From an uncultured bacterium (GTDB lineage: Bacteria > Verrucomicrobiota > Kiritimatiellia > CAIVKH01), in NCBI GenBank assembly GCA_903906425.1, contig CAIVKH010000124.1, forward strand, positions 35,981-99,980: 64,000 bases of DNA. The letters are read 5' to 3'. Below are positions 17,678 through 58,879 of this stretch, piece by piece. Position 1 is the stretch's first letter. Every line of letters begins with the position of its first letter. A program made the position numbers and the translations under genes. The notes under the pieces were generated by a model. The model saw nothing but the letters and a program-made list of their open reading frames with translations, had not been told where the DNA came from and ran no database searches.

Positions 17678-17789
17678 TTCCAATCATTGGAAAAACCCGA
17701 CGTCGAAATCTTCCAACCATTGGAAAACCCGCGGCGGCAATTTTCCAATCATTGGAAATGCGGCAGCCGGAATCTTCCAATCATTGGAA
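17678..17789. repeat. REP cluster 5: four copies.
   Basis: 17678-17692, 17711-17725 (ttccaaccattggaa, one mismatch), 17743-17757 and 17775-17789. Pitch 33/32/32 bp. Confidence 0.95.
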
Positions 17790-32308: not shown

Positions 32309-32680
32309 CGCGCCCAAGTCCGCCGCCAACTTGCCCAAGTCCGTGACGAACTTGATCAAGGGCGTCGCCGCCGTGATCCGGACACGGCAAACTTGCCCAA
32401 GGACGCCGCAGTTTTGCCCACGCTCGCGATGTCCTCGACCGAGGACGCCACGAACTCGCCCAATGGAACGATGGACATGCCCTGGTTCGTCACCACCTTG
32501 CCCAAGGAAGCGGCGAACTCGCCTAAGGCCGTCGCCAGCTCGCCCAAAGAAACGGTGAACTTGCCCAAGGACGCGACAGACTTGCCCAAGGTGCTCGTGA
32601 ACTTGCCCAAGAAAACGATGGACTTGCTCAAGGACGCGGCAAACTTGCCTAAGTTCACGACGAACTTGCCCAAGTTTATC
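32309..32680. repeat. Array of about 18 tandem 21-bp units with core CTTGCCCAAG. It may encode a heptad-repeat protein.
   Basis: Core starts at 32309, 32330 and 32351, then 14 cores from 32392 to 32665 spaced every 21 bp. The 32351-to-32392 step is 41 bp, that is 2x21 minus 1. Seven cores are exact. Open frames exist on both strands (NLPKxxx on plus, LGKFxxS on minus). Confidence 0.9.
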
Positions 32681-32887
32681 GCGTCCGGAAGCTAAATCTT
32701 CGTCCGATTAGTCACGCAGACGGCTTAATTGCAGCGCCTTGCGTCACAAGTGGCAAAATCATCAAAAAATGCCGCCTGTCGGCTGGCAACCCGGCATCCT
32801 TCCTCGCCCCGGTTCGCCGGGACGCTCCCTTCAAAGATTTGTTCGATTTGTGTACTGGCTGAATTCATGAACCTCCGTGCGGAGCAC

Positions 32888-32994: not shown

Positions 32995-33180
32995 TTACAC
33001 GCCAAGTCTGTTGCGGCGGATCGCTTCGCCGTTGGTCGCGTTGCTGGTCACGCCGTGATCATTGAGCGGGATGATGCGCTCGTGGATGGCGTCGAGGATC
33101 CATGCGGGCTGCGGGAAGAAGTCGTTTTCCATTTCGGCGCAGGGCGTGATCCAGTTGCGCGAGCCGACGACGACGGGCGG
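32995..33180 (-). pseudogene. Relic copy B of the E1 gene 3' end (last 61 codons plus stop).
   Basis: Aligns without gaps to 34219-34404 with 12 mismatches over 186 nt (hand count). Ten of the 12 are synonymous. Homology stops abruptly after ...gacgacgacgggcgg. Confidence 0.9.
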
Positions 33181-33197
33181 CGAGTACAAAAGATCGA

Positions 33198-33887
33198 CTA
33201 TTTGCTCTTTATCAGCCACGCAAGTACCGCGCCGAGAACGGCACTGAAAGTTGCCAGCAGAACTTTGCTTTTAGTGTCTCTTGAAGCACGTTCAGTCTCG
33301 GTTTTGCGGCTGCGCTGTGTCCATTCCTGAAGTGCAGGAATTGCGGCGGCAATTCGAGACATGGCATCTGCCAATTCGGTCACGATTTTCCGGTATTCGC
33401 GGATAAGATCTAATGTCTCGTGTTTTGTAATGTCCTTGTTCGTGCGAATCGTGGCGACTTGCTGTGCGATTTGTTCCAGACGAGGGCGGATCGTGTGATA
33501 ATAGTCTGGAAACACCGCGGTGATGCATTCGTTTGAGTAGCCAGCAAGCATCTGAAGCGTCTTTTCGCGGAGCGAAATTTGCAGCCAGTCCGCCGCATCA
33601 AAGAACGCGCGAAATTCATGGCCTATGGCTTTGCGAAGCGACTGCTCGATATATTCAGAATCCGCCGGATTCCGCTGTTCGAGCATTCCCAATTCACAGG
33701 CCATGGCTCGCATGATGTGTTCGAGCGCGTGCCGCTGTTCCATCGCGGGCTGGAGAAAATCCAGCAATTCGGGATCTGTTTCTTCGGCGAGAATAAAAAG
33801 CGACTTGCAATGATTATGGATTTCAACCAATTCGCGCCAGAGTCGCTCGCAGGGCTTTGCGGAATTGCCCGGCTCCGCGCCGCTCAT
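33198..33887 (-). CDS. Hypothetical helical protein with a C-terminal transmembrane anchor (cargo gene 2).
   Basis: 229 aa with C-terminal VLLATFSAVLGAVLAWLI. Contains QRHALEH, which fits an Rx4H pattern. About 47% GC in the one 60-nt line I counted. Its ATG overlaps the stop of the upstream small ORF (ATGA). Confidence 0.6.
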   Translation of the reverse strand: MSGAEPGNSAKPCERLWRELVEIHNHCKSLFILAEETDPELLDFLQPAMEQRHALEHIMRAMACELGMLEQRNPADSEYIEQSLRKAIGHEFRAFFDAADWLQISLREKTLQMLAGYSNECITAVFPDYYHTIRPRLEQIAQQVATIRTNKDITKHETLDLIREYRKIVTELADAMSRIAAAIPALQEWTQRSRKTETERASRDTKSKVLLATFSAVLGAVLAWLIKSK

Positions 33888-34218: not shown

Positions 34219-36672
34219 CTATACGCCGAGCCGGTTGCGGCGGATCGCCTCGCCGTTCGTCGCGTTGCTGGTCACGACGTGATCCTTGAGCGGGATGATG
34301 CGCTCGTGGATGGCGTCGAGGATCCACGCGGGCTGCGGGAAGAAGTCGTTCTCCATTTCGGCGCAGGGCGTGATCCAGTTGCGGGAGCCGACGACGACGG
34401 GCGGGGCGTCGAGGTGGTCGAATGCAAGCTGGCCGAGGTTGGCGGCGATAGTTTGCATGATCGAACCGCGTTCGCTGGCGTCGCCGGCGACAAGCACGCG
34501 TCCGGTCTTCTTCACCGATTCGACGAGCGGTGTGTAGTCGAGCGGGTTGAGCGTGCGGCAGTCCCAGATGTCGGCGGTCATGCCGTATTTCTTTTCGAGA
34601 ATGTCGGCGGCTTCGATCGCGCGATAGAGCGTCGCGCCGATCGTGACGAGCGTGATGTCCTTTCCAACGCGGCGTTGCGCGGGCAGGCCGAACGGGATTT
34701 CGTAGTAGCCGGCGGGCACGGTCGGCTCGAACATTTCGCCGATGTCGTAGGTGCGCTGGCTCTCGAAGAACACGACGGGATCGCTTCCGGCGAGCGCGGT
34801 GTTGAGCAGGCCCTTGGCGTCGTACGGCGTGTTCGGGAACACGACCTTGAGGCCGGGGATGTGGTTGCAGATTGCGGTCCAGTCCTGCGAGTGCTGCGCG
34901 CCGTATTTCGAGCCGACGGACACGCGGAGCACGACGGGCATTTCGAGGACGCCCGCGCTCATGCTCTGCCACTTGGAAAGCTGGTTGAAGATTTCGTCGC
35001 CCGCGCGGCCCATGAAATCGCAGTACATCAGCTCGACGAGCGCACGCCCGCCGTCGAGCGCGTAGCCGACGGCCGTGCCGACGATCGCGCCCTCGGAGAT
35101 CGGCGAGTTGAAGAGGCGGTGATACGGCAGCGCCTCGGTGAGTCCGCGATAGCACGCGAACGCCCCGCCCCAGTCGCGATTTTCTTCGCCGTAGATCACG
35201 AGCGTCGGGTCGATCTTCGCGCGGTGGAGGATCGCTTCGAAGATGCCGTCGCGAAGCTGATAGACCTTGTTCTTCGGCGTCGGCTTGCCCTCGTGCATGC
35301 CGCTGCGGATCTTCTTCGCGATGGCGGCCACGCGCGGATTGTCGTCGCCGGCCTGCAGCAGATCGGGCTTGCGCGTCGTGTCGTACGATTCGACTTTGCG
35401 ATTCGAGAACATGAAGTCCTCGATCTTCGCGCCATCGAGCCGCGGCGAGATCGTCATGTCGCTCGCGAGCTTGAGCGACTTCGTGACGATGCCCTTGACG
35501 TTCGCGATGAGCTTCTGCTGCGCCGCGTCGTCGAGGATTTTGATCTTCTTGAGGTTCTCCGCGAACGTGATGATCGGATCAATCTTCGCCCACAGGTCGA
35601 GCTCCTCCTTCGTGCGGTACGACGACGCATCGGACGGCGAGTGACCGGAGAAGCGGTACGTCAGCGTGTCGAGCAGCACCGGCCCGTTGCCCTCTTCGAG
35701 AATTTTCCGCTTGCGCGCAATCGCGTCGGCGACGGCGAGCGGGTTGTAGCCGTCCACGCGTTCCGCGTGCATGCCGTCCTTGTTCACGCCGAGACCGAAG
35801 CGGGCGACGTAATCGTAGCCCATCGTCTCGCCGGACGTCTGGCCGCCCATGCCGTAGAAATTGTTCATGATGTTGAAAATGATCGGCAGCCCGCCGCGAT
35901 GCCCCTTTTCCCAGAGGTGATAGAGTTGGCCCATCGAGGCGAAGTTCATGCCTTCCCAAACCGGACCGCAGCCCATCGAGGCGTCGCCGACGTTGCAGAT
36001 AACCAGGCCCTTCTTACCGTTCACGCGTTTGAACAGCGCCGCGCCGGCGGAGATGTCGCCGGAGCCGCCGACGATTGCGTTGTTCGGATACACGCCGAAC
36101 GGCGGGAAGAACGCGTGCATCGAGCCGCCGAGGCCGCGATTGAAGCCGGCCTTGCGTCCGAAAATTTCCGCGAGCGCGCCGTACGTCAGAAAATCAACCG
36201 CGAGCTCCTTCACCGAGCCGCTGAAATGTTTTTCGACGATCGCGAGACACTCGCCGCCGAGATATTCCTTCATGATCTTTTGCAGCGACGCGTCGTCGAG
36301 CTTGTGAATCGCCGACAAACCCTTCGCGAGAATTTCGCCGTGCGAGCGGTGCGAGCCGTAGATGTGATCATCAACCGTCAGATGAAATGCCTGCCCGACG
36401 GCGGCCGCTTCCTGGCCCATGGACAGATGCGCCGGACCTTTGTGGTCATACGCGACGCCGTTGTACGAGCCTTCCGTCTTGATCGCGTGCAACATGCTTT
36501 CGAATTCGCGGATGAGGAGCATGTCCTCATAAATGCCGAGCAGCGCCTGTGCGCCGAGTGACTTCAATTCCTTCTCAATCGGCGTCGCATACTGGTTCAG
36601 CGGAATTTCCGGAGCCGTCAGCTTCGCGGGTTTACGTTCTTTTGCGGGATCTACAATTAGTGCCTTTGGCAT
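34219..36672 (-). CDS. 2-oxoacid dehydrogenase E1 component, fused alpha-beta subunits (ThDP-dependent).
   Basis: 817 aa. The alpha part carries [17 protein letters not shown]...[13 protein letters not shown]. The beta part carries [17 protein letters not shown]...[12 protein letters not shown]3 and E2 genes lie upstream on the same strand. Confidence 0.9.
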
Positions 36673-36722
36673 TTTCTATTTTCCTTTCAAACTATGTTTC
36701 AAAACTTCGTTCACTCTAAAAT

Positions 36723-36769
36723 TTCCAATCATTGGAAAACTCCGCCGCGCAAACTTCCAATCGTTGGAA
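36723..36769. repeat. REP cluster 10: two copies.
   Basis: 36723-36737 and 36755-36769 (ttccaatcgttggaa, one mismatch). Confidence 0.9.
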
Positions 36770-36824
36770 AGTCTTAATCAGAATCCTCGGCTACCAGATA
36801 TACTCAATTGTTTCGCTCTTTAGA

Positions 36825-39596
36825 CTATGTGATTCCATCCGCCGTCGTGTTGTTTTCTGCAAGTGGTAAGTGCATGTAGAAAACCGACCCAACTCCGGGC
36901 ACACTTTCCACATCTATGATTCCTTTGTGCTCATACACGATGCCGTGCGTGACGCTGAGACCAAGTCCAGTTCCGGTATTCTTTGTTGTAAAGAATGGAT
37001 CGAATATGTGGGGAAGATGATTGGGACCAATGCCCACTCCTTGGTCACGAATTGCAACTGTTAGGAATCTGCCTTTGTTAGCGGTCGTAATAGTAAGGCA
37101 CCCTCCGTTTTCCATAGCTTCCACACCATTGAGCATAAGATTAAGAAATGCCTGCTGTAACAAATCCGAGTCTCCAAGAACAAAATCATCGGGCGCACGC
37201 CAATCAGTTGACAAACGCACTTTCTTTTTCTCAAGATGACCACGAAAAAGACCAAGAGTCTGCTCAAGGATTGCGTGAACAGACACAGGCTTAAATATTG
37301 GCTGACGCGGACGAGCAAATCTGAGAAGACTATTCACCATTGAATCGATCCGCGAGATTTCTTGAGACATCAATGGCATGCCAGTCGCACGGAACTCTTC
37401 GTCATTATATCGTTCCGGGAGTAATTGGCAGAACGTCTTGAGAACTTGTAATGGGTTCTTGATTTCATGCGCCATGCCGGCTGCAAGCGTACCCACGCTA
37501 GCAAGCCGCTCCGTTCTTCTTGTCGCGCGTACTGATTCAGTCTTTTCGCGAGATGCAGAAATATATTCAATCAATTCTTTTTTGAGGTACTCCGCGTTCG
37601 CTTTGACCATGTCCTCGGCTTCATCAAGAAGACGGCCTTCTGGAATCAGAAGATCGTCCGGTTTGCGCTCAGCTTGCCATCGCGCCGCGTTCTCCGTTAC
37701 CCTTGCGCGTGTCTGTATGAACAGACGATTGTCACTAATCCATCTGGCCAATCGTGGCCACTTATCCAATAACACTTCGTGCGTAACATATACGATGGAC
37801 GCACCCGTGGTATCACGCTGGGTTGCCAATAGCCTACCATCGATGAGCTTCTCCACGACAGCTCGCATCTCTGTGTCACGGCAGATGTCTTCGGTTCGAG
37901 CATAAGTTCTGGATACGGTCTCCCGGTCTCCGGGGCCGGTACTAACAAGAGCATGGAATACGGCGGGCAGTTTCTGTCTAGCTTTGTCTGAAAGAGCCGC
38001 GACAATCTTTTCAGCGTGCGCGCAAACGGCTCCTTCCACACCACCTATTTCATCGTATGCCGCATTGGTGAGCACGCCTAATGAAGCACAACGCGCGTAA
38101 AGTTCAGTCAAGGTGAACTCAAGGAGGGGGAGACTCCCGGGGTTGTTAACAGCGGCATCTCTGAGCCGATCATCCAGAGGTTCTCCTGTGACGGGATGTC
38201 TTTCATAATGCAAGCCTGCCGCCGCCGCTGGCATTCTTACAGCGACACCGATGTCGGCCGGGGTCGGTGGTCCAAGATGATACTGTCCAAGTCCTTTCAT
38301 CAGCAACTGTAAGTCCGGAACTTCCTCGCAGCGATGGTAGAAATCGCTACGAAGCGTGGCCAATACCCAAATAACACCCGACTTCGATAACAGAGAGAGG
38401 ATTCGCGCAAAGACACGCCTTTCATCAGCACTGATTGTATCAAGAGTGAACATTTCTTCCATTTGGTCAATGACGAGTGCGATCCGCCAAGAGCTCCTGC
38501 TGATGCCAGTGTTTGGGACCGGCTCCCGAGACGACGGTGAAGCCAAGATCCGTGCGACGATCTCGCACGCAGCTTCAGGGCGTTCTCGCAGCGTACGATC
38601 AAAGTCCTCTGCGTCCATTCCGAGGCGGAGCATATTGTTCCGTAGAGGTATTGTGTTTAAGAGACAAGTGGCAAGTCCATCAATTAGGCTGCGCGGCGAG
38701 TCACTTGGGCGAAATATGCAATGCGCCCATGCTGTTGTTCCGTCGACAACGCCAGGTCTGACGAGTAGCGGTAAGACTCCTGCGCGGATCAAGGATGACT
38801 TACCGCAACCACTCATGCCCAGAACAGTCACGAACAAGGCTTCGCCGCGAGTAAGACTTCGCCGCCGAAGATTGCTGACAATGTCGGCTATTGCTTGAGT
38901 ACGACCAAAGAATATTTGCGAATGCTCGAACTCGAATACCTCGAGGCCACGAAATGGGCATCCATTCGTCCAAGACTTTGCGATGCTCCCAATTCTGGCC
39001 TGTTGTTCTCGGGCAGGAATTGCACGCTCTAACAACCTTCTGAGATGCATCTCGACCAACTTTTCAAACTCATCCGCGGTTGCGAAGCGATGAAGTGTAG
39101 CTGTGGGCAATCGGGTCTCTTCATGCTTAAACCAAGAATCGATGAAAGCATCGAGATTCTTCCTCTGTGACAGGCGTTGCAGGACCTCGACTTCTTCCGC
39201 GAGGCTCACTACGGGAATCTCCATCTTTCGATACACAAGCAAGTCCGGTTTCCCTCTCGCGGCGAAACCACGCGCAGCATCTTCGAACTCGAACGCGGTC
39301 CCGGACTCGTAAGCACTGCCGTCGGGGCGTCGGAAATGTGGTGGTAGTCGCGTTCCTAGACGGGACCATAAAATGCAGATCACGGCATCGCATTGAGATG
39401 GCAGCGTCAATTGATCCTGTGGATGCTCAACAGCGCTTAAGGGTTCCTGTTCCCAGAATATTGGCTCAATAGGCAAACCAGCAGCGAATTCTGCACGAAG
39501 ACGGAGCAAGACTCGCTCAACGAGGAGGCGTTCATGCTCTACGTCTCCGGGCGATGATACGAAAACCCGAAACATCGATTGGCCATTTTTCGTCAT
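36825..39596 (-). CDS. TIR-like/DUF4062 domain - nSTAND-type P-loop NTPase - histidine kinase (HisKA plus HATPase_c) fusion, 923 aa.
   Basis: N-terminus: FRVFVSSPGDVEHERLL...CDAVICILWSRLGT. NTPase: Walker A VLGMSGCGKSSLIRAGVLP (nt about 38793-38819), Walker B LVIDQMEEMFT, then LRSDFY, PGSLPLLEFTLTELY, YDEIGGVEGAV and THEVLLDKWPRLARWI. Kinase: H-box AAGMAHEIKNPL (His710, nt 37467-37469), N-box LNLMLNGVEAM, G-boxes DQGVGI and GTGLGLS. Start has RBS GAGGAG. About 47-48% GC in two hand-counted lines. Confidence 0.8.
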   Translation of the reverse strand: MTKNGQSMFRVFVSSPGDVEHERLLVERVLLRLRAEFAAGLPIEPIFWEQEPLSAVEHPQDQLTLPSQCDAVICILWSRLGTRLPPHFRRPDGSAYESGTAFEFEDAARGFAARGKPDLLVYRKMEIPVVSLAEEVEVLQRLSQRKNLDAFIDSWFKHEETRLPTATLHRFATADEFEKLVEMHLRRLLERAIPAREQQARIGSIAKSWTNGCPFRGLEVFEFEHSQIFFGRTQAIADIVSNLRRRSLTRGEALFVTVLGMSGCGKSSLIRAGVLPLLVRPGVVDGTTAWAHCIFRPSDSPRSLIDGLATCLLNTIPLRNNMLRLGMDAEDFDRTLRERPEAACEIVARILASPSSREPVPNTGISRSSWRIALVIDQMEEMFTLDTISADERRVFARILSLLSKSGVIWVLATLRSDFYHRCEEVPDLQLLMKGLGQYHLGPPTPADIGVAVRMPAAAAGLHYERHPVTGEPLDDRLRDAAVNNPGSLPLLEFTLTELYARCASLGVLTNAAYDEIGGVEGAVCAHAEKIVAALSDKARQKLPAVFHALVSTGPGDRETVSRTYARTEDICRDTEMRAVVEKLIDGRLLATQRDTTGASIVYVTHEVLLDKWPRLARWISDNRLFIQTRARVTENAARWQAERKPDDLLIPEGRLLDEAEDMVKANAEYLKKELIEYISASREKTESVRATRRTERLASVGTLAAGMAHEIKNPLQVLKTFCQLLPERYNDEEFRATGMPLMSQEISRIDSMVNSLLRFARPRQPIFKPVSVHAILEQTLGLFRGHLEKKKVRLSTDWRAPDDFVLGDSDLLQQAFLNLMLNGVEAMENGGCLTITTANKGRFLTVAIRDQGVGIGPNHLPHIFDPFFTTKNTGTGLGLSVTHGIVYEHKGIIDVESVPGVGSVFYMHLPLAENNTTADGIT

Positions 39597-39817
39597 GTAT
39601 CCCGCTCCTCTATTTCTTTGTGCCGATTCGCCTAACCGGGCCTATTTGACAATTCATTGGTGATTTTCTGCAGCCACAAACTTCCGTTTTCGGTTTTCCA
39701 TCCGTCTCGATCTTGTTTCTCCAATCATCAAAATGTGCGTGTCCCGAAGTTTCTATTGGTGGCTGTATCTTTTTCATGCTTGGGCTTCTTGCTTGTTTCG
39801 CATTTCGTGCTTCGGAT

Positions 39818-41158
39818 TTAATGCAGCGTAAAAATCGAGTCCCTGATCAACTCGCTCACCGTCGGATGCGGAAAAACAATCTCCTCGATTTCCTTCGCGC
39901 GGAATTCCGCTTCGATCAGCGCCGCCGCGCCCCAGATCATCTCCGAGCACGAATGGCCGATCATGTGGACGCCGAGCAAAACGTTCGTTTCGGCGTGCAG
40001 CACGACCTTGACCTGACCGCGCTCGCCATCGGTCTCCGCGAGGTAACGGCCGCTCGCGCCCATCGGCATCTTCGCGACCTTTACGGGAACGCCCGCCTTC
40101 TTTGCGTCGTCTTCGTTCATGCCCACCGTCGCCACTTCAGGCGACGTGTACACAACACCGGGAATCGCGTTCGCACGGTAGCGGTCGCTGCGGCCCGTCA
40201 TGTTGTTCACGGCCACTTCGCCCATGCGCGTCGCGGTATGCGCGAGCCACGCCTTGCCGGTGCAATCGCCCGCGGCCCAGACGCCGGGAATGTTCGTCGC
40301 GCAACGGTCATCAACTTTGATTCCGCGCCTGTCGAAATCTACACGCAGGTCTTCGAGGCCGAGGCCGCTGACATTCGGCACGCGGCCCGTCGAAACGAGT
40401 ACGATGTCGCGCTCGACGGATTCCTGTTTGCCGTCTTTTTCGAATCGCACGGCGTCCTTCGTAATTTCCAAAACCTTCGCGCCTGTGTGGAACGTGATGT
40501 TCTTTTTCGCAAGCTCGCTGCGCAACATCTTCGCGATGTCCCCGTCAATTTGCGGACAAATCTCCGGCAGCATTTCGATCACGGTGACGGGCACGCCGAC
40601 GGAACCGAAGAAGCACGCGAACTCGCAGCCGATCACGCCGCCGCCGATGATGACGATGCTCTTCGGCAGCTTATCCAGATTCAACACGCCCGTCGAATCC
40701 ACCACGCCCGGCAGATCGTGGCCGGGAATCGGCGGCTTCGCGGGCGACGAGCCTGTGCTGATCAAAATGTTTTTCGCCTCGTAAACCTGGCCGTTCACCT
40801 CGACCTTGCGATCCGCGCGCAGTTTCGCCGCACCGGTCACGACCTCGACCTTGAACTTCTTCATCAGCCCCGCGATGCCGCCGCGCAGCGTTTCGATAAT
40901 CTTCTGTTTACGCGCCATCACCTTCGAGAAATCGAACGCGACATTTTGCGCGGTGACGCCGAACGCCTCGCCGTGCAGCGCGTGGCTGTAGTACTTCGCC
41001 GAATTCAGCAGCGTCTTCGACGGCACGCAGCCGACGTTCAGACACACGCCGCCGAGCTGGCTCTTCTCGACGAGCAGAACTTTGAGTCCCTTTGCCGCCG
41101 CCCGCTCTGCCGGCACATAACCGCCCGGCCCGCCGCCGATGATGATCAAATCGTACAT
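39818..41158 (-). CDS. lpdA: Dihydrolipoyl dehydrogenase (E3).
   Basis: MYDLIIIGGGPGGY...GGVCLNVGCVPSK redox-active disulfide motif, 446 aa. Confidence 0.92.
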   Translation of the reverse strand: MYDLIIIGGGPGGYVPAERAAAKGLKVLLVEKSQLGGVCLNVGCVPSKTLLNSAKYYSHALHGEAFGVTAQNVAFDFSKVMARKQKIIETLRGGIAGLMKKFKVEVVTGAAKLRADRKVEVNGQVYEAKNILISTGSSPAKPPIPGHDLPGVVDSTGVLNLDKLPKSIVIIGGGVIGCEFACFFGSVGVPVTVIEMLPEICPQIDGDIAKMLRSELAKKNITFHTGAKVLEITKDAVRFEKDGKQESVERDIVLVSTGRVPNVSGLGLEDLRVDFDRRGIKVDDRCATNIPGVWAAGDCTGKAWLAHTATRMGEVAVNNMTGRSDRYRANAIPGVVYTSPEVATVGMNEDDAKKAGVPVKVAKMPMGASGRYLAETDGERGQVKVVLHAETNVLLGVHMIGHSCSEMIWGAAALIEAEFRAKEIEEIVFPHPTVSELIRDSIFTLH

Positions 41159-41232: not shown

Positions 41233-42582
41233 TTATGCGCTCAGCAGAAGATCACAATTCTCCAGCGAGGTGCAGAGATCCTTCAGGAACCGCGCGGCGG
41301 GCGCGCCGTCAACGACCTGGTGATCGATTGTCAGGCTCAATGTGATCGCCTCGACGAATTCGACTTTGCCGTCTTTTTTCACCGGCTTCAGTTGAATGCC
41401 GCCGACACCGAGAATCGCGACTTCGGGAACGTTCAGCACGGGCGTGAACGTCTCGACGCCGGACGCGCCAAGGTTCGTGATCGTGAACGTGCCGCCGCTC
41501 AAATGATCGGGGCTGATTGAGCCCTTCTGGCACTGGTCGGCCAGCGAACGGACCGCCGAGCTCAGCTCGCGAATAGGCATCGCGTGCGCATTGCGGACGA
41601 CGGGAACCATCAGGCCGCGCGGCGTATCCACCGCGATGCCGAGATGAACCGCGCCGAATTTCACAATCTTGTCGGCGAGGAAATGCGCGTTCAAATCGCG
41701 ATGCTTCGGCAGCACGCGGCAGATCGCGTAGCAGAGCAGATCGTTGATCGTGACCTTCGGAGTACCGAACGTCTCGCCGTGAATTTTTGCGCGGGCGCGG
41801 TACGACTGAATCACCGACGCATCGAAACTCATCGTCATTGTCAACTGCGCCGTCGTCGCAATCGAAGCCTTCATGCGGTCCGCGATAATTTTTCTGATGC
41901 CTTTGACGGCGACGGTCTCGTCGGCGGCCGTGACAACGACAGGCTTCGCGGCAACGGCCGAGTCCTTTGTCATTTGTCCTTTGTCATTTGAAAGAACCAT
42001 TCCGCCGAGGCCGGTGCCGGTTGAACCGACGGTTGCGCCGGCCGCTTTCGCAGCCGCGCTAAGTTTGGGAGCGCCCGCTGCCGCGGCTTGAACATCGCGC
42101 TCGATGACGCGACCGCCTGGGCCGCTGCCCGCGAGTTGCGAGGCATCGACGCCTTGTTTGGCGGCGAGATTTTTCGCGCGAGGCGAGACGCCCGCGGTTT
42201 CTGCCGCGTCCGTCGTCAAATGTCCTTTGTCACTTGTCGGAGCAACTGCCAGCGTTGGTTCGGCGCCTTTCTGACTGACCTCCAACTTCTGACCGCCAAC
42301 CTCTGCGCCTGCGCCCGCAGGGCGAAGTGCCGACACATCCTCACCCGCCGCGCCAATCGCGGCGATGTTTGTGAGCACCGGAATGTCCGCGCCTTCGTCG
42401 AAGAAGAGTTCGAGCACGGTTCCCGCGGCGGGGGCTTCGATGTCGAACGACGACTTGTCGGTTTCGATACTGCCGACAGGCTGGCCTTGTGTGACGGTGT
42501 CGCCCTTCTTCACCTTCCACGAAACGAGAATGCAGCTTTCAACGGACTGGCCCAAACGGGGCATCAATACTGGGGTTGCCAT
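41233..42582 (-). CDS. Dihydrolipoamide acyltransferase (E2).
   Basis: Lipoyl domain with IETDKSSFDIEAP, a subunit-binding domain (SPRAKNLAAKQGVD), and a catalytic domain ending DHQVVDGAPAARFL. Confidence 0.9.
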   Translation of the reverse strand: MATPVLMPRLGQSVESCILVSWKVKKGDTVTQGQPVGSIETDKSSFDIEAPAAGTVLELFFDEGADIPVLTNIAAIGAAGEDVSALRPAGAGAEVGGQKLEVSQKGAEPTLAVAPTSDKGHLTTDAAETAGVSPRAKNLAAKQGVDASQLAGSGPGGRVIERDVQAAAAGAPKLSAAAKAAGATVGSTGTGLGGMVLSNDKGQMTKDSAVAAKPVVVTAADETVAVKGIRKIIADRMKASIATTAQLTMTMSFDASVIQSYRARAKIHGETFGTPKVTINDLLCYAICRVLPKHRDLNAHFLADKIVKFGAVHLGIAVDTPRGLMVPVVRNAHAMPIRELSSAVRSLADQCQKGSISPDHLSGGTFTITNLGASGVETFTPVLNVPEVAILGVGGIQLKPVKKDGKVEFVEAITLSLTIDHQVVDGAPAARFLKDLCTSLENCDLLLSA

Positions 42583-42593
42583 GTTGTGTTCTC

Positions 42594-43379
42594 CTAAACT
42601 TTCATCACTTGAAGTTGTTTGTGTGCTTTGCGCAGTTCGCGCTCGAATTTCGATTCGATCCGCGAGTCCGTGATAATCAAATCCACATCATCGAGTTTTC
42701 CGGCCTTCGCGAATGAGGCCTTGCCGAGTTTGCTATTGTCGGCGAGCAAAATGACTTTGTCGGCGTTCGCGGCGACGAGTTCCTTCGTGTAGGCCTCGCT
42801 CGGATCGCTGGTCGTGATGCCTTCGTCGAGGCTCAAGCCCATCGTGCCCATGAATGCTTTCGTGATGTGAACCTGTTCGAGCAAAAGTCGCGTGAACGCG
42901 CCGACAACAGTCTGGCTGCGGCGGCGAAGCTCGCCGCCGACGATGACGAGTTGCGGCCCGCGGCCTGAAAGTTCGATCGCCGCGCGAAGCGAATTGGTGA
43001 CGACGGTGATGTCCTCGCGATCCACGAGCAGCCGCGCGAGTTCGAGGACGGTGCTGCCGCCATCGAGATAAATGGTTTCGCCGGGCTGGATCATTCGCGC
43101 GGCGGCTTTGGCGATCCGCTGCTTTTCTTTTGAGTTGATCGAGGTTTTCGCATCGAACATCGGCTCGTCGAGCCGTGTCTCGATGCTCATCGCGCCGCCG
43201 TGGACGCGCTTGATGCGGCCCGAGGTTTCGAGCGCATCGAGATCGCGCCGCGCGGTTGCGCCGGAGACGCCGAGCTCGCTGATGATTTCGTCCACGCGCG
43301 CGACGCCGCGCTGCCGGATGAATTCCCGCAGCCGTTCCTGCCTTTCAGGCGCCAGATCGTTGTGAGCAGATGTGACCAT
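42594..43379 (-). CDS. DeoR/GlpR-family transcriptional regulator.
   Basis: N-terminal HTH (RLREFIRQRGVARVDEIISELGVSGATARRDLDALE) and a C-terminal sugar-binding DeoRC-like domain. Confidence 0.85.
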   Translation of the reverse strand: MVTSAHNDLAPERQERLREFIRQRGVARVDEIISELGVSGATARRDLDALETSGRIKRVHGGAMSIETRLDEPMFDAKTSINSKEKQRIAKAAARMIQPGETIYLDGGSTVLELARLLVDREDITVVTNSLRAAIELSGRGPQLVIVGGELRRRSQTVVGAFTRLLLEQVHITKAFMGTMGLSLDEGITTSDPSEAYTKELVAANADKVILLADNSKLGKASFAKAGKLDDVDLIITDSRIESKFERELRKAHKQLQVMKV

Positions 43380-58800: not shown

Positions 58801-58879
58801 TTCCAATGATTGGAAATTCCGCCGCCGCAAACTTCCAATCATTGGAAAAACACGGTTCGGAAATTTCCAATCATTGGAA
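58801..58879. repeat. REP cluster 17: three copies.
   Basis: 58801-58815, 58833-58847 and 58865-58879, exact 32-bp pitch. Confidence 0.95.

Follow-up and report, generated by a model that had tools for sequence, protein, structure and literature searches.

How does a protein that joins the core of an immune-type switch to a complete histidine kinase come to lie inside a metabolic operon, and what might it do there? The question is raised by a window of 64 kb (the whole stretch of DNA analysed here, from contig CAIVKH010000124.1 of an uncultured bacterium of the Kiritimatiellia lineage; all positions are those of the window), in which a single open reading frame (ORF) of 923 codons (36825-39596, minus strand, ATG start, TAG stop) separates the genes for the E3 and E1 components of a 2-oxoacid dehydrogenase. 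The gene was singled out in an earlier note, made by a model from the sequence alone. Our analysis shows that it encodes a single-gene, NLR-like (NOD-like receptor) STAND (signal transduction ATPases with numerous domains) protein, which belongs to the nSTAND1 clade and was acquired horizontally, coming to lie between E3 and E1 in one species of the PVC (Planctomycetes-Verrucomicrobia-Chlamydiae) group. An intact STAND NTPase stands between a predicted TIR-like domain, likewise intact, and a complete kinase transmitter; sensor repeats and a linked regulator are both missing.

Pfam searches return the domain order that the note had read from the translation, i.e. TIR-like/DUF4062, nSTAND1 and HisKA/HATPase_c, with the DUF4062 score just under the cut-off, and every motif quoted there, including the one with His710, sits where it was placed. 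The corresponding segments of the gene, all on the minus strand, are:

39276..39569, minus strand: DUF4062/TIR-like domain, residues 10-107 (Pfam, homologous N-domains, AlphaFold2 (AF2), Foldseek, column counts)
37656..38957, minus strand: nSTAND1 NTPase module, residues 214-647 (PF20703, motifs, invariant columns)
38793-38819, minus strand: Walker A, GMSGCGKSS, residues 260-268 (motif position)
38454-38477, minus strand: Walker B, LVIDQMEE, residues 374-381 (motif position)
37410..37637, minus strand: continuous helix (predicted), residues 654-729, linking the nSTAND1 tail with helix 1 of the DHp (dimerization and histidine phosphotransfer) domain (AF2 full-length model)
37302..37493, minus strand: HisKA (DHp), residues 702-765 (PF00512, 41.2 bits)
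37467-37469, minus strand: codon of the phospho-acceptor His710 (H-box AHEIKNPL, residues 709-716)
36858..37175, minus strand: HATPase_c (CA, the catalytic and ATP-binding domain), residues 808-913 (PF02518, 80.1 bits; N, G1, F and G2 boxes)

The central module matches PF20703 over model positions 1-378 of 379, with 307.7 bits (E=2.4e-91) against a cut-off of 27.1 bits. In addition to the Walker motifs it has an RSD motif (TLRSDFY, residues 414-420) with the conserved Arg416, and in an alignment of 42 sequences the columns of G263, G265, K266, S267, D377, E380 and R416 do not vary. The kinase shows the boxes LNLMLNGVEA (818-827), DQGVGI (851-856), FDPFFTTK (865-872) and GTGLGLS (875-881), as well as the H-E-x-x-N motif, which in HisKA kinases is associated with phosphatase activity. 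Its best partial matches in NCBIfam are AtoS and ZraS, and among solved structures the one that the full-length model matches best is that of the ZraS kinase core (9jfj, 34% identity). As judged from the sequence, all testable features of nSTAND1 are present, and so are those of HisKA kinases except for the linked regulator. The full-length AF2 model has a predicted local distance difference test (pLDDT) score of 77.8 and a predicted template modelling (pTM) score of 0.41; the individual domains are confident, and it is the helix of residues 654-729 that carries His710. The profile searches proposed in the note support the STAND NTPase and the kinase, and leave DUF4062 borderline.

This borderline score is accompanied by support at the level of the family. 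DUF4062 (PF13271) matches the full protein with 20.6 bits and the isolated domain with 24.2 bits, against a cut-off of 24.7, and the alignment extends over the full model (1-82 of 82). Among the homologous N-domains 16/18 match DUF4062 (best E 9e-8) and none matches another family, so that the protein very probably belongs to the DUF4062 family. The AF2 model of the N-domain (pLDDT 85.5) shows parallel strands alternating with helices in a β-α-β fold. Foldseek comparisons with the PDB gave weak, generic flavodoxin-like matches (template modelling score 0.3-0.4), which include the TIR domains of RUN1 and the IL-18 receptor β and a nucleoside 2-deoxyribosyltransferase; when the PDB was queried by sequence, with the N-domain alone or with a profile built on it, nothing matched, and the TIR-like structures of Swarozyc and TEP1 were not retrieved. 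The predicted structure fits a TIR-like fold and does not establish one.

The insertion is apparent from both composition and synteny. The note had placed a lower-GC, single-gene insert at about 36770-39817 in the E2-E3-E1 operon, and composition bears this out: the windowed GC that it had suggested computing is 0.45-0.55 across 36600-39800 and 0.58-0.66 on both flanks (400-nt windows), while the GC content at third codon positions (GC3), which is a sharper measure of foreign composition than windowed GC, is 0.50 for the 923-codon gene as against 0.85 for E1, 0.80 for E3, 0.71 for E2 and 0.74 for DeoR. Pfam confirms the identities of E2, E3, the fused E1 α-β and DeoR, which stand in the order DeoR-E2-E3-E1. 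The foreign segment spans ~36770-39817, and an AGAGGAG Shine-Dalgarno sequence lies upstream of the ATG of its single gene. The locus comprises:

42594-43379: DeoR regulator (Pfam)
41233-42582: E2 (Pfam)
39818..41158, minus strand: E3 (dihydrolipoamide dehydrogenase), upstream flank of the insertion site (Pfam; synteny in 80 loci)
39597..39817, minus strand: AT-rich leader of 221 bp from the E3 stop to the gene start, foreign, holding the Shine-Dalgarno sequence (GC 0.45)
36825..39596, minus strand: the gene for the 923-residue DUF4062 (TIR-like)-nSTAND1-HisKA-HATPase_c protein (ORF list, Pfam, GC3, identical copy in at least five assemblies)
36770..36824, minus strand: AT-rich 3' spacer of 55 bp, distal edge of the insert (GC 0.38)
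36723..36769, no strand: host pair of REP-like (repetitive extragenic palindromic) palindromes just upstream of E1, marking resident DNA (palindrome count)
34219..36672, minus strand: fused E1 α-β, downstream flank of the insertion site (Pfam; synteny)

The note had further suggested comparing the E3-E1 junction in related genomes, and this comparison favors an insertion. The E1 protein was scanned against one genome per species, yielding 80 loci from PVC-group, planctomycete and spirochaete metagenome-assembled genomes, the closest with 83% identity. In ~55/80 of these DeoR-E2-E3-E1 are contiguous, with 13-200 bp from the end of E3 to the start of E1; none of these ~55 gaps holds an nSTAND or kinase gene, i.e. 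the site is empty, whereas the gap in the window measures 3,145 bp. By exact-protein look-up with E3, E1 and the 923-residue protein we found the insert in at least five assemblies (ERZ1426829, ERZ1426631, ERZ27313068, ERZ18624653 and Logan ERR4194907), which differ at 1 DNA position in 10 kb and at 0 inside the gene; because the copies in the five assemblies are identical, selection analysis has no power. All contigs on which E3 or E1 is identical have the insert, and no empty-site allele was found within the species. Thus, the insert is fixed in the species and absent from all sampled related species. Since it is absent from the relatives, fixed here and compositionally foreign, a fairly recent horizontal acquisition is indicated, and the locus offers a clean natural example of a single-gene insertion amid a conserved metabolic operon.

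As to the vehicle, we looked for a tRNA gene, an integrase and flanking direct repeats at the insert and found none, and the plasmid and phage collections held no close copy of the gene. The leader and spacer gave nothing above background in an Rfam scan (for the leader, no match), and promoter and terminator scans of both gave no signal beyond shuffle expectation. The palindrome pair on the E1 side, which the note had reported, is real: the 15-nt palindrome TTCCAATGATTGGAA has 79 strand matches (~40 sites) in the window against 0.09 expected, nearly always in pairs or in runs of three to four, 32 nt apart and intergenic, including the E2-E3 gap (e.g. 2470/2502, 8089/8121, 17678-17789, 41179/41211, 36723/36755 and 58801-58879). 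The family is genome-wide, and because the pair at 36723-36769 is a member of this family, widespread in the window, it represents resident DNA. Folded as RNA, one such pair shows no unusual stability (z = -0.87). A candidate REP remnant at the E3-proximal edge (39719-39733, 4 mismatches) was discarded, as ~0.66 such sites are expected by chance, and it offers no evidence for insertion into a REP cluster.

The E3-E1 gap is also enlarged in two of the related genomes: in L005 (9430-10000) by a 572-bp insert with a small ORF, and in L006 (9803-10000), where it holds tandem repeats of the GAAATCTGAAATC type. The junction thus seems to be a recurrent insertion point.

Where did the two halves of the protein come from? 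Among its 120 best full-length matches in a collection of 5.8 billion clustered proteins, the only one with kinase domains is the protein itself. The others are DUF4062-nSTAND1 proteins from Gammaproteobacteria, Bacteroidota, Acidobacteriota and others, which show 42-47% identity to the first ~75% of the query and end in long arrays of TPR (TPR_NPHP3-type) or WD40 repeats, as the note had expected of relatives at the position that the kinase occupies here. They share with our protein the helix following the NTPase, up to about S682, and like it are encoded by solitary genes in unrelated neighborhoods. By per-domain BLASTP the identity to this group is 51% for the N-domain and 43% for nSTAND (375 bits), while the kinase is 48% identical (216 bits) to PAS kinases, with a range of 48-54% over the comparisons made. 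These relatives are bacterial counterparts of the eukaryotic NPHP3/NWD1/TEP1 layout; the DUF4062-nSTAND1-TPR_NPHP3-type order found among P0002-P0120 is the same as that of NPHP3 itself. One relative (among L091 and L093) adjoins a MalT-like STAND regulator and lies near a gene with a faint SLATT_1 match.

The fusion junction falls at about residues 683-695: homology to the TPR/WD40 proteins ends near S682, and that to histidine kinases begins near residue 690. The protein is therefore a chimera, in which a DUF4062-nSTAND1-helix half continues at ~690 into the complete DHp and CA transmitter of a relative of ZraS/AtoS/NtrB-type PAS kinases. It shares with these kinases and with the 7TM (seven-transmembrane)-GAF-PAS kinases (P0121-P0269) the DHp+CA module (48-58% identity) with all its boxes, including H-E-x-x-N; theirs are driven by membrane, PAS or GAF sensors, usually in ordinary two-component networks, whereas here the driver, if there is one, would be a STAND NTPase. 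That a kinase took the place of a sensor array is suggested by the shared flanking domains, which leave the order of events undemonstrated.

A second protein of this kind was not found within the reach of our searches in the 5.8 billion clustered proteins or in 1.84 billion representatives. In an exhaustive HMMER search of the latter with residues 501-923, all of the top 150 matches that we inspected, bar the protein itself, align with the kinase core alone (most are 7TM-GAF-PAS kinases of ~830 residues, 44-58% identical), and a query spanning the junction (residues 630-770) retrieved kinase fragments only. Two candidates with the same two-stretch geometry, P0180 (914 residues) and P0258 (917 residues), were rejected as nSTAND-kinase fusions, being PAS/GAF double kinases by Pfam. 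Stand-alone kinase cores (P0270-P0279) were likewise rejected as parts of a split system: they lie on frameshift-fragmented contigs, are pieces of 7TM-PAS kinases and have no nSTAND gene nearby.

A singleton in two collections of this size is what one would expect of a recent neutral or decaying chimera, in which a recombination accident in the donor fused a fragment of a kinase onto an nSTAND1 gene that had been truncated, and the product, which would lack any coherent function, was transferred and then fixed by drift or hitch-hiking. The missing sensor fits this account, as do the clonal copies, on which selection cannot be shown, and the GC3 of the two halves of the gene (0.52 versus 0.44) would fit it as well, though their difference is not significant. 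We nevertheless hold it to be very unlikely: the frame of 923 codons is intact and preceded by a good Shine-Dalgarno sequence, all catalytic motifs are present in the three enzymatic modules, and the junction runs from helix to helix in a manner compatible with folding. Moreover, the same domain order has evolved independently and is maintained in many actinobacteria, and hence the design is workable.

The actinobacterial proteins came to light in tblastn searches of plasmid records, which gave single alignments over residues ~204-912 in Streptomyces and Nonomuraea; by Pfam these ORFs read Trypsin_2-nSTAND1 (~296 bits)-HisKA-HATPase_c-Response_reg. In a search with one member, ~70 of the top 120 clusters belong to this nSTAND1-kinase family (P0280-P0349), with hosts in Streptomyces, Kitasatospora, Nonomuraea, Actinomadura, Saccharothrix, Actinoplanes and others (e.g. 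NZ_CP109497.1, 660,113-663,616). Some variants have no receiver and others a GAF domain before the kinase (nSTAND1-GAF-HK-REC, where HK is the histidine kinase and REC the receiver), while sister proteins end in PAS-GAF-SpoIIE or WD40. Each fusion gene that we examined is preceded by a small gene for Trypco1, a trypsin-co-occurring domain defined in conflict systems (Kaur et al., 2020, PMC7159879). Such units of Trypco1 and Trypsin_2-nSTAND1-HisKA-HATPase_c(-Response_reg) are found at:

L086, 4988-8817
L087, 5347-8775
L094, 4675-8387
L095, 4205-7427

Although the kinase regions of 43 actinobacterial fusions diverge to pairwise identities as low as 17%, 43/43 retain the phospho-His, the Asn of the N-box, the Asp and glycines of G1 and the Phe of the F-box, and the same is true of the G2 glycines, bar G875 (42/43). 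Because the catalytic residues are invariant despite this divergence, the kinase in such fusions appears to be kept as an active enzyme and not as a dead decoy.

Our protein resembles this family in that nSTAND1 is followed by a complete HisKA and HATPase_c in place of WD40 or TPR repeats, in having an enzymatic N-terminal domain of the effector type, and in the absence of an adjacent response-regulator gene. It differs in having DUF4062 and no partner where theirs have a trypsin-like domain and a Trypco1 gene, and in lacking the receiver that is fused to most of theirs. By BLASTP the two kinds are 28.5% identical in nSTAND (107 bits) and 27.5% in the kinase (51 bits). A neighbor-joining tree of 53 nSTAND domains (420 columns) splits our protein and the TPR/WD40 proteins from all actinobacterial ones in 100/100 bootstraps, and within the latter the members that bear a kinase do not form a single clade. 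From nSTAND1 to HisKA the linker measures 55 residues here and ~120 in the actinobacterial fusions. Because the per-domain identities are low, the tree is split and the linkers differ in length, the two kinds of fusion are convergent, with independent origins and no common descent.

The note had regarded a STAND switch wired to a histidine kinase as an undescribed architecture. As stated, this is not supported, in that the architecture is populated by the actinobacterial family, whose members carry the automatic names 'nSTAND1 domain-containing NTPase' or 'hybrid sensor histidine kinase' in UniRef and other public databases. A literature search found no paper describing nSTAND1-kinase proteins: Kaur et al. 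(2020, PMC7159879) report no histidine kinases among the catalogued vWA-associated effectors, and Kaur et al. (2021), who named nSTAND1, leave such kinase fusions unmentioned. The protein is thus an independent variant, without a second example so far, of a design that recurs but is unstudied, and it is unusual for its DUF4062 N-domain, the lack of a receiver, its ZraS/AtoS-like kinase, its PVC host and its independent origin.

Whether the N-domain might be an active enzyme bears on any mechanism. DUF4062 domains have been described as TIR-like NADases (NAD+-cleaving enzymes) for two defence systems, Swarozyc and Evangelion, and for human TEP1 (bioRxiv 10.64898/2026.05.01.722283; 10.64898/2026.06.25.731849), with the catalytic Glu at E97 of KpSwz, E1008 of TEP1 and, as E87-Y88, in Eva01 (same preprints), and they are activated by assembly (bioRxiv 10.64898/2026.05.01.722283). 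The equivalent motif here reads S98-G-T-A101-F-E103-F104-E105, and both E103 and E105, which are invariant in 42/42 aligned sequences, are kept. By the motif description in the preprint, and not by superposition, E103-F104 would be the catalytic Glu-aromatic pair. The two codons of interest are:

39288-39290, minus strand: putative catalytic Glu, E103 (invariant column, motif description)
39294-39296, minus strand: A101, in place of Glu (column counts)

The Ala at motif position 101 (S-G-T-E-x-E-F-E) is common to one WD40-type relative, P0041.

What, then, would the kinase do? HisKA kinases act as DHp dimers. We tentatively favor, at somewhat less than even confidence, a mechanism in which assembly of the STAND core switches on the kinase, and maybe the TIR-like NADase, by induced proximity, and the signal passes to an unlinked regulator. 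The nSTAND1 core would serve as an NTP-dependent oligomerization switch operated by nucleotide exchange, and its assembly would bring the C-terminal kinase protomers together via the continuous junction helix. As histidine kinases depend on the DHp dimer for their activity, this pairing would permit autophosphorylation at His710, to be followed by phosphotransfer to a regulator encoded elsewhere in the genome; and because TIR-type enzymes are activated by oligomerization, the N-terminal NADase may fire in parallel from the same assembly. The kinase would then be a proximity-activated output comparable to the effector domains of other STAND proteins, by which an immune-type switch becomes a phosphorelay signal. 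A precedent is provided by STAND signaling in general, in which nucleotide-dependent oligomerization activates fused effectors by induced proximity (Leipe et al., 2004; Kaur et al., 2020, PMC7159879). The recurrence of the nSTAND1-kinase design in Actinobacteria with the kinase residues kept also speaks for such a mechanism.

Several observations weigh against it. DHp domains normally dimerize constitutively, and the kinase might just as well hold the protein in a dimeric state without responding to assembly. The junction through which assembly would be relayed is the least confident part of the AF2 model (pLDDT 44-55 at residues 681-701, with a pTM of 0.41). Pfam reveals no nameable sensor domain and no C-terminal repeats in the protein, and residue 101 of the N-domain, which is Glu in 38/42 aligned sequences, is Ala. 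The neighbor-joining tree places the protein as a sister of the TPR/WD40 group; its nesting inside the TPR clade, recovered in just 17/100 bootstraps, is unsupported. The clonal copies, with 0 differences in the gene, give no sign of purifying selection on it. Finally, the window offers no recipient for the phosphoryl group: a phmmer search with the receiver sequences of CheY, NtrC and OmpR against all stop-to-stop ORFs of the window found no receiver domain (best E 0.18), while the EnvZ core, used as a positive control, matched the 923-residue ORF alone (5e-10). The claim of the earlier note that the window holds no response regulator is hereby corroborated. An attempt to predict a partner from the contexts of the donor-like kinase family was uninformative, as these contain further kinases and a REC-HK protein and no single conserved regulator.

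The placement of the kinase exactly where the close relatives carry TPR or WD40 sensors raises the converse reading, that it is an input. [quoted passage not shown] DUF4062 here occupies the position of the effector and keeps the invariant E103 and E105, and DUF4062 proteins have been experimentally shown to be NADase defence effectors (bioRxiv 10.64898/2026.05.01.722283; 10.64898/2026.06.25.731849). The actinobacterial fusions, too, keep an N-terminal effector (trypsin with Trypco1) and often end in a receiver, an input-type module, and sister architectures have PAS or GAF sensors at the same position. We consider this reading rather unlikely all the same. In its decoy version the catalytic residues would be needless, yet they are invariant across the actinobacterial family, and no phage-derived ligand can be proposed; the Glu at position 101 of the supposed effector is replaced by Ala, and the gene has neither a defence-island context nor a significant PADLOC match.

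The context indeed gives little indication of defence. The neighboring genes code for E1, E2, E3, DeoR, a nucleotidyltransferase, an APH-type kinase, a Kelch protein and a YfhO-like protein; those scanned have no PADLOC match and no Trypco1 match, and there is no defence-island neighborhood. For the 923-residue protein PADLOC returned no significant model, the best being PDC-S60 (E=2e-4), which covers only the N-terminal 120 residues. The protein falls within none of the catalogued defence systems, and the label of a defence system that the note had attached to it finds no support in the housekeeping context or in PADLOC, resting only on the family ties of its N-terminal and central domains.

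The same context invites the suggestion of ordinary, non-immune signaling, in which the STAND core integrates a metabolic cue (for example nucleotide or NAD+ status, with DUF4062 as a ligand-binding input) and a phosphorelay leads to an orphan regulator, comparable to proteins of the MalT/AfsR type. The gene is co-directional with, and inside, an NAD+-dependent dehydrogenase operon among housekeeping neighbors, has no detectable promoter or terminator of its own, lacks a PADLOC match and encodes a kinase of the ordinary ZraS/AtoS type; and orphan kinases are common in bacteria. What makes this suggestion quite unlikely in our view is that the gene is foreign, restricted to its lineage and missing from all sampled relatives of the host, which fits accessory or conflict genes better than core regulation, that its nearest relatives are solitary and scattered in unrelated contexts, and that both of its non-kinase families have been described only in settings of conflict and immunity (PMC7159879; PMC8195603; bioRxiv 10.64898/2026.05.01.722283; 10.64898/2026.06.25.731849).

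Among characterized systems, the closest comparisons are with proteins that have DUF4062 or STAND domains. With Swarozyc, Evangelion and TEP1 it very probably shares a DUF4062 TIR-like domain with the Glu-aromatic motif (E103-F104 here), and for those proteins activation by higher-order assembly has been shown (bioRxiv 10.64898/2026.05.01.722283; 10.64898/2026.06.25.731849). Swarozyc and Evangelion are, however, single-gene systems without a STAND NTPase or a kinase, TEP1 combines NACHT with WD40, and the NADase here is putative. With Avs and the bacterial NLR-like proteins it has in common the tripartite logic of a central STAND NTPase and an N-terminal enzymatic effector, whereas Avs proteins recognize phage proteins through sensors at the C-terminus and occur preferentially in defence islands, in contrast to the kinase, the housekeeping neighbors and the missing PADLOC match here.

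STAND and NLR-like proteins have been understood as sensor-switch-effector machines with destructive outputs, such as NADases, nucleases, proteases and pores. The union of a STAND core with an intact histidine kinase suggests a non-lethal signaling output or else an input controlled by phosphorylation, and the independent origins in two phyla, with the kinase residues invariant in Actinobacteria, indicate that the coupling is no one-off accident. It is conceivable, albeit doubtful, that nSTAND1-kinase fusions make up an undescribed class of NLR-like receptors, in which STAND assembly is read out as a His-Asp phosphorelay and elicits a transcriptional or behavioral response instead of, or alongside, suicide. 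Such a class would have evolved at least twice, in the PVC group with a TIR-like NADase N-domain and in Actinobacteria with trypsin and Trypco1, and the protein described here, with no receiver and no partner, would be its minimal member. If so, it would link bacterial innate-immune sensors directly to two-component signaling. As a compact, single-gene version with three separable enzymatic modules, it makes the question of a STAND-controlled kinase testable through point mutants of K266, E103 and H710.

The surroundings of E1 show two further features. A 190-nt direct repeat (32996-33185 and 34220-34409, 93% identical) copies the last 190 nt of E1 and brackets a lower-GC segment of 1.03 kb (GC3 0.57) with an ORF of 229 codons (33198-33887, minus strand), the product of which has a hydrophobic C-terminal tail and matches nothing in Pfam or PADLOC. 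The segment has the appearance of another element, distinct from the first, whose integration into the 3' end of E1 provided the gene with a new end; because of this integration, E1 would be flanked by two foreign segments. Further on, an ORF downstream of the E1 locus contains, at 32413-32685, seven overlapping copies of a 63-nt unit (CTTGCCCAAGG...) at a spacing of 21/42 nt, which indicates a predicted heptad-like peptide repeat.

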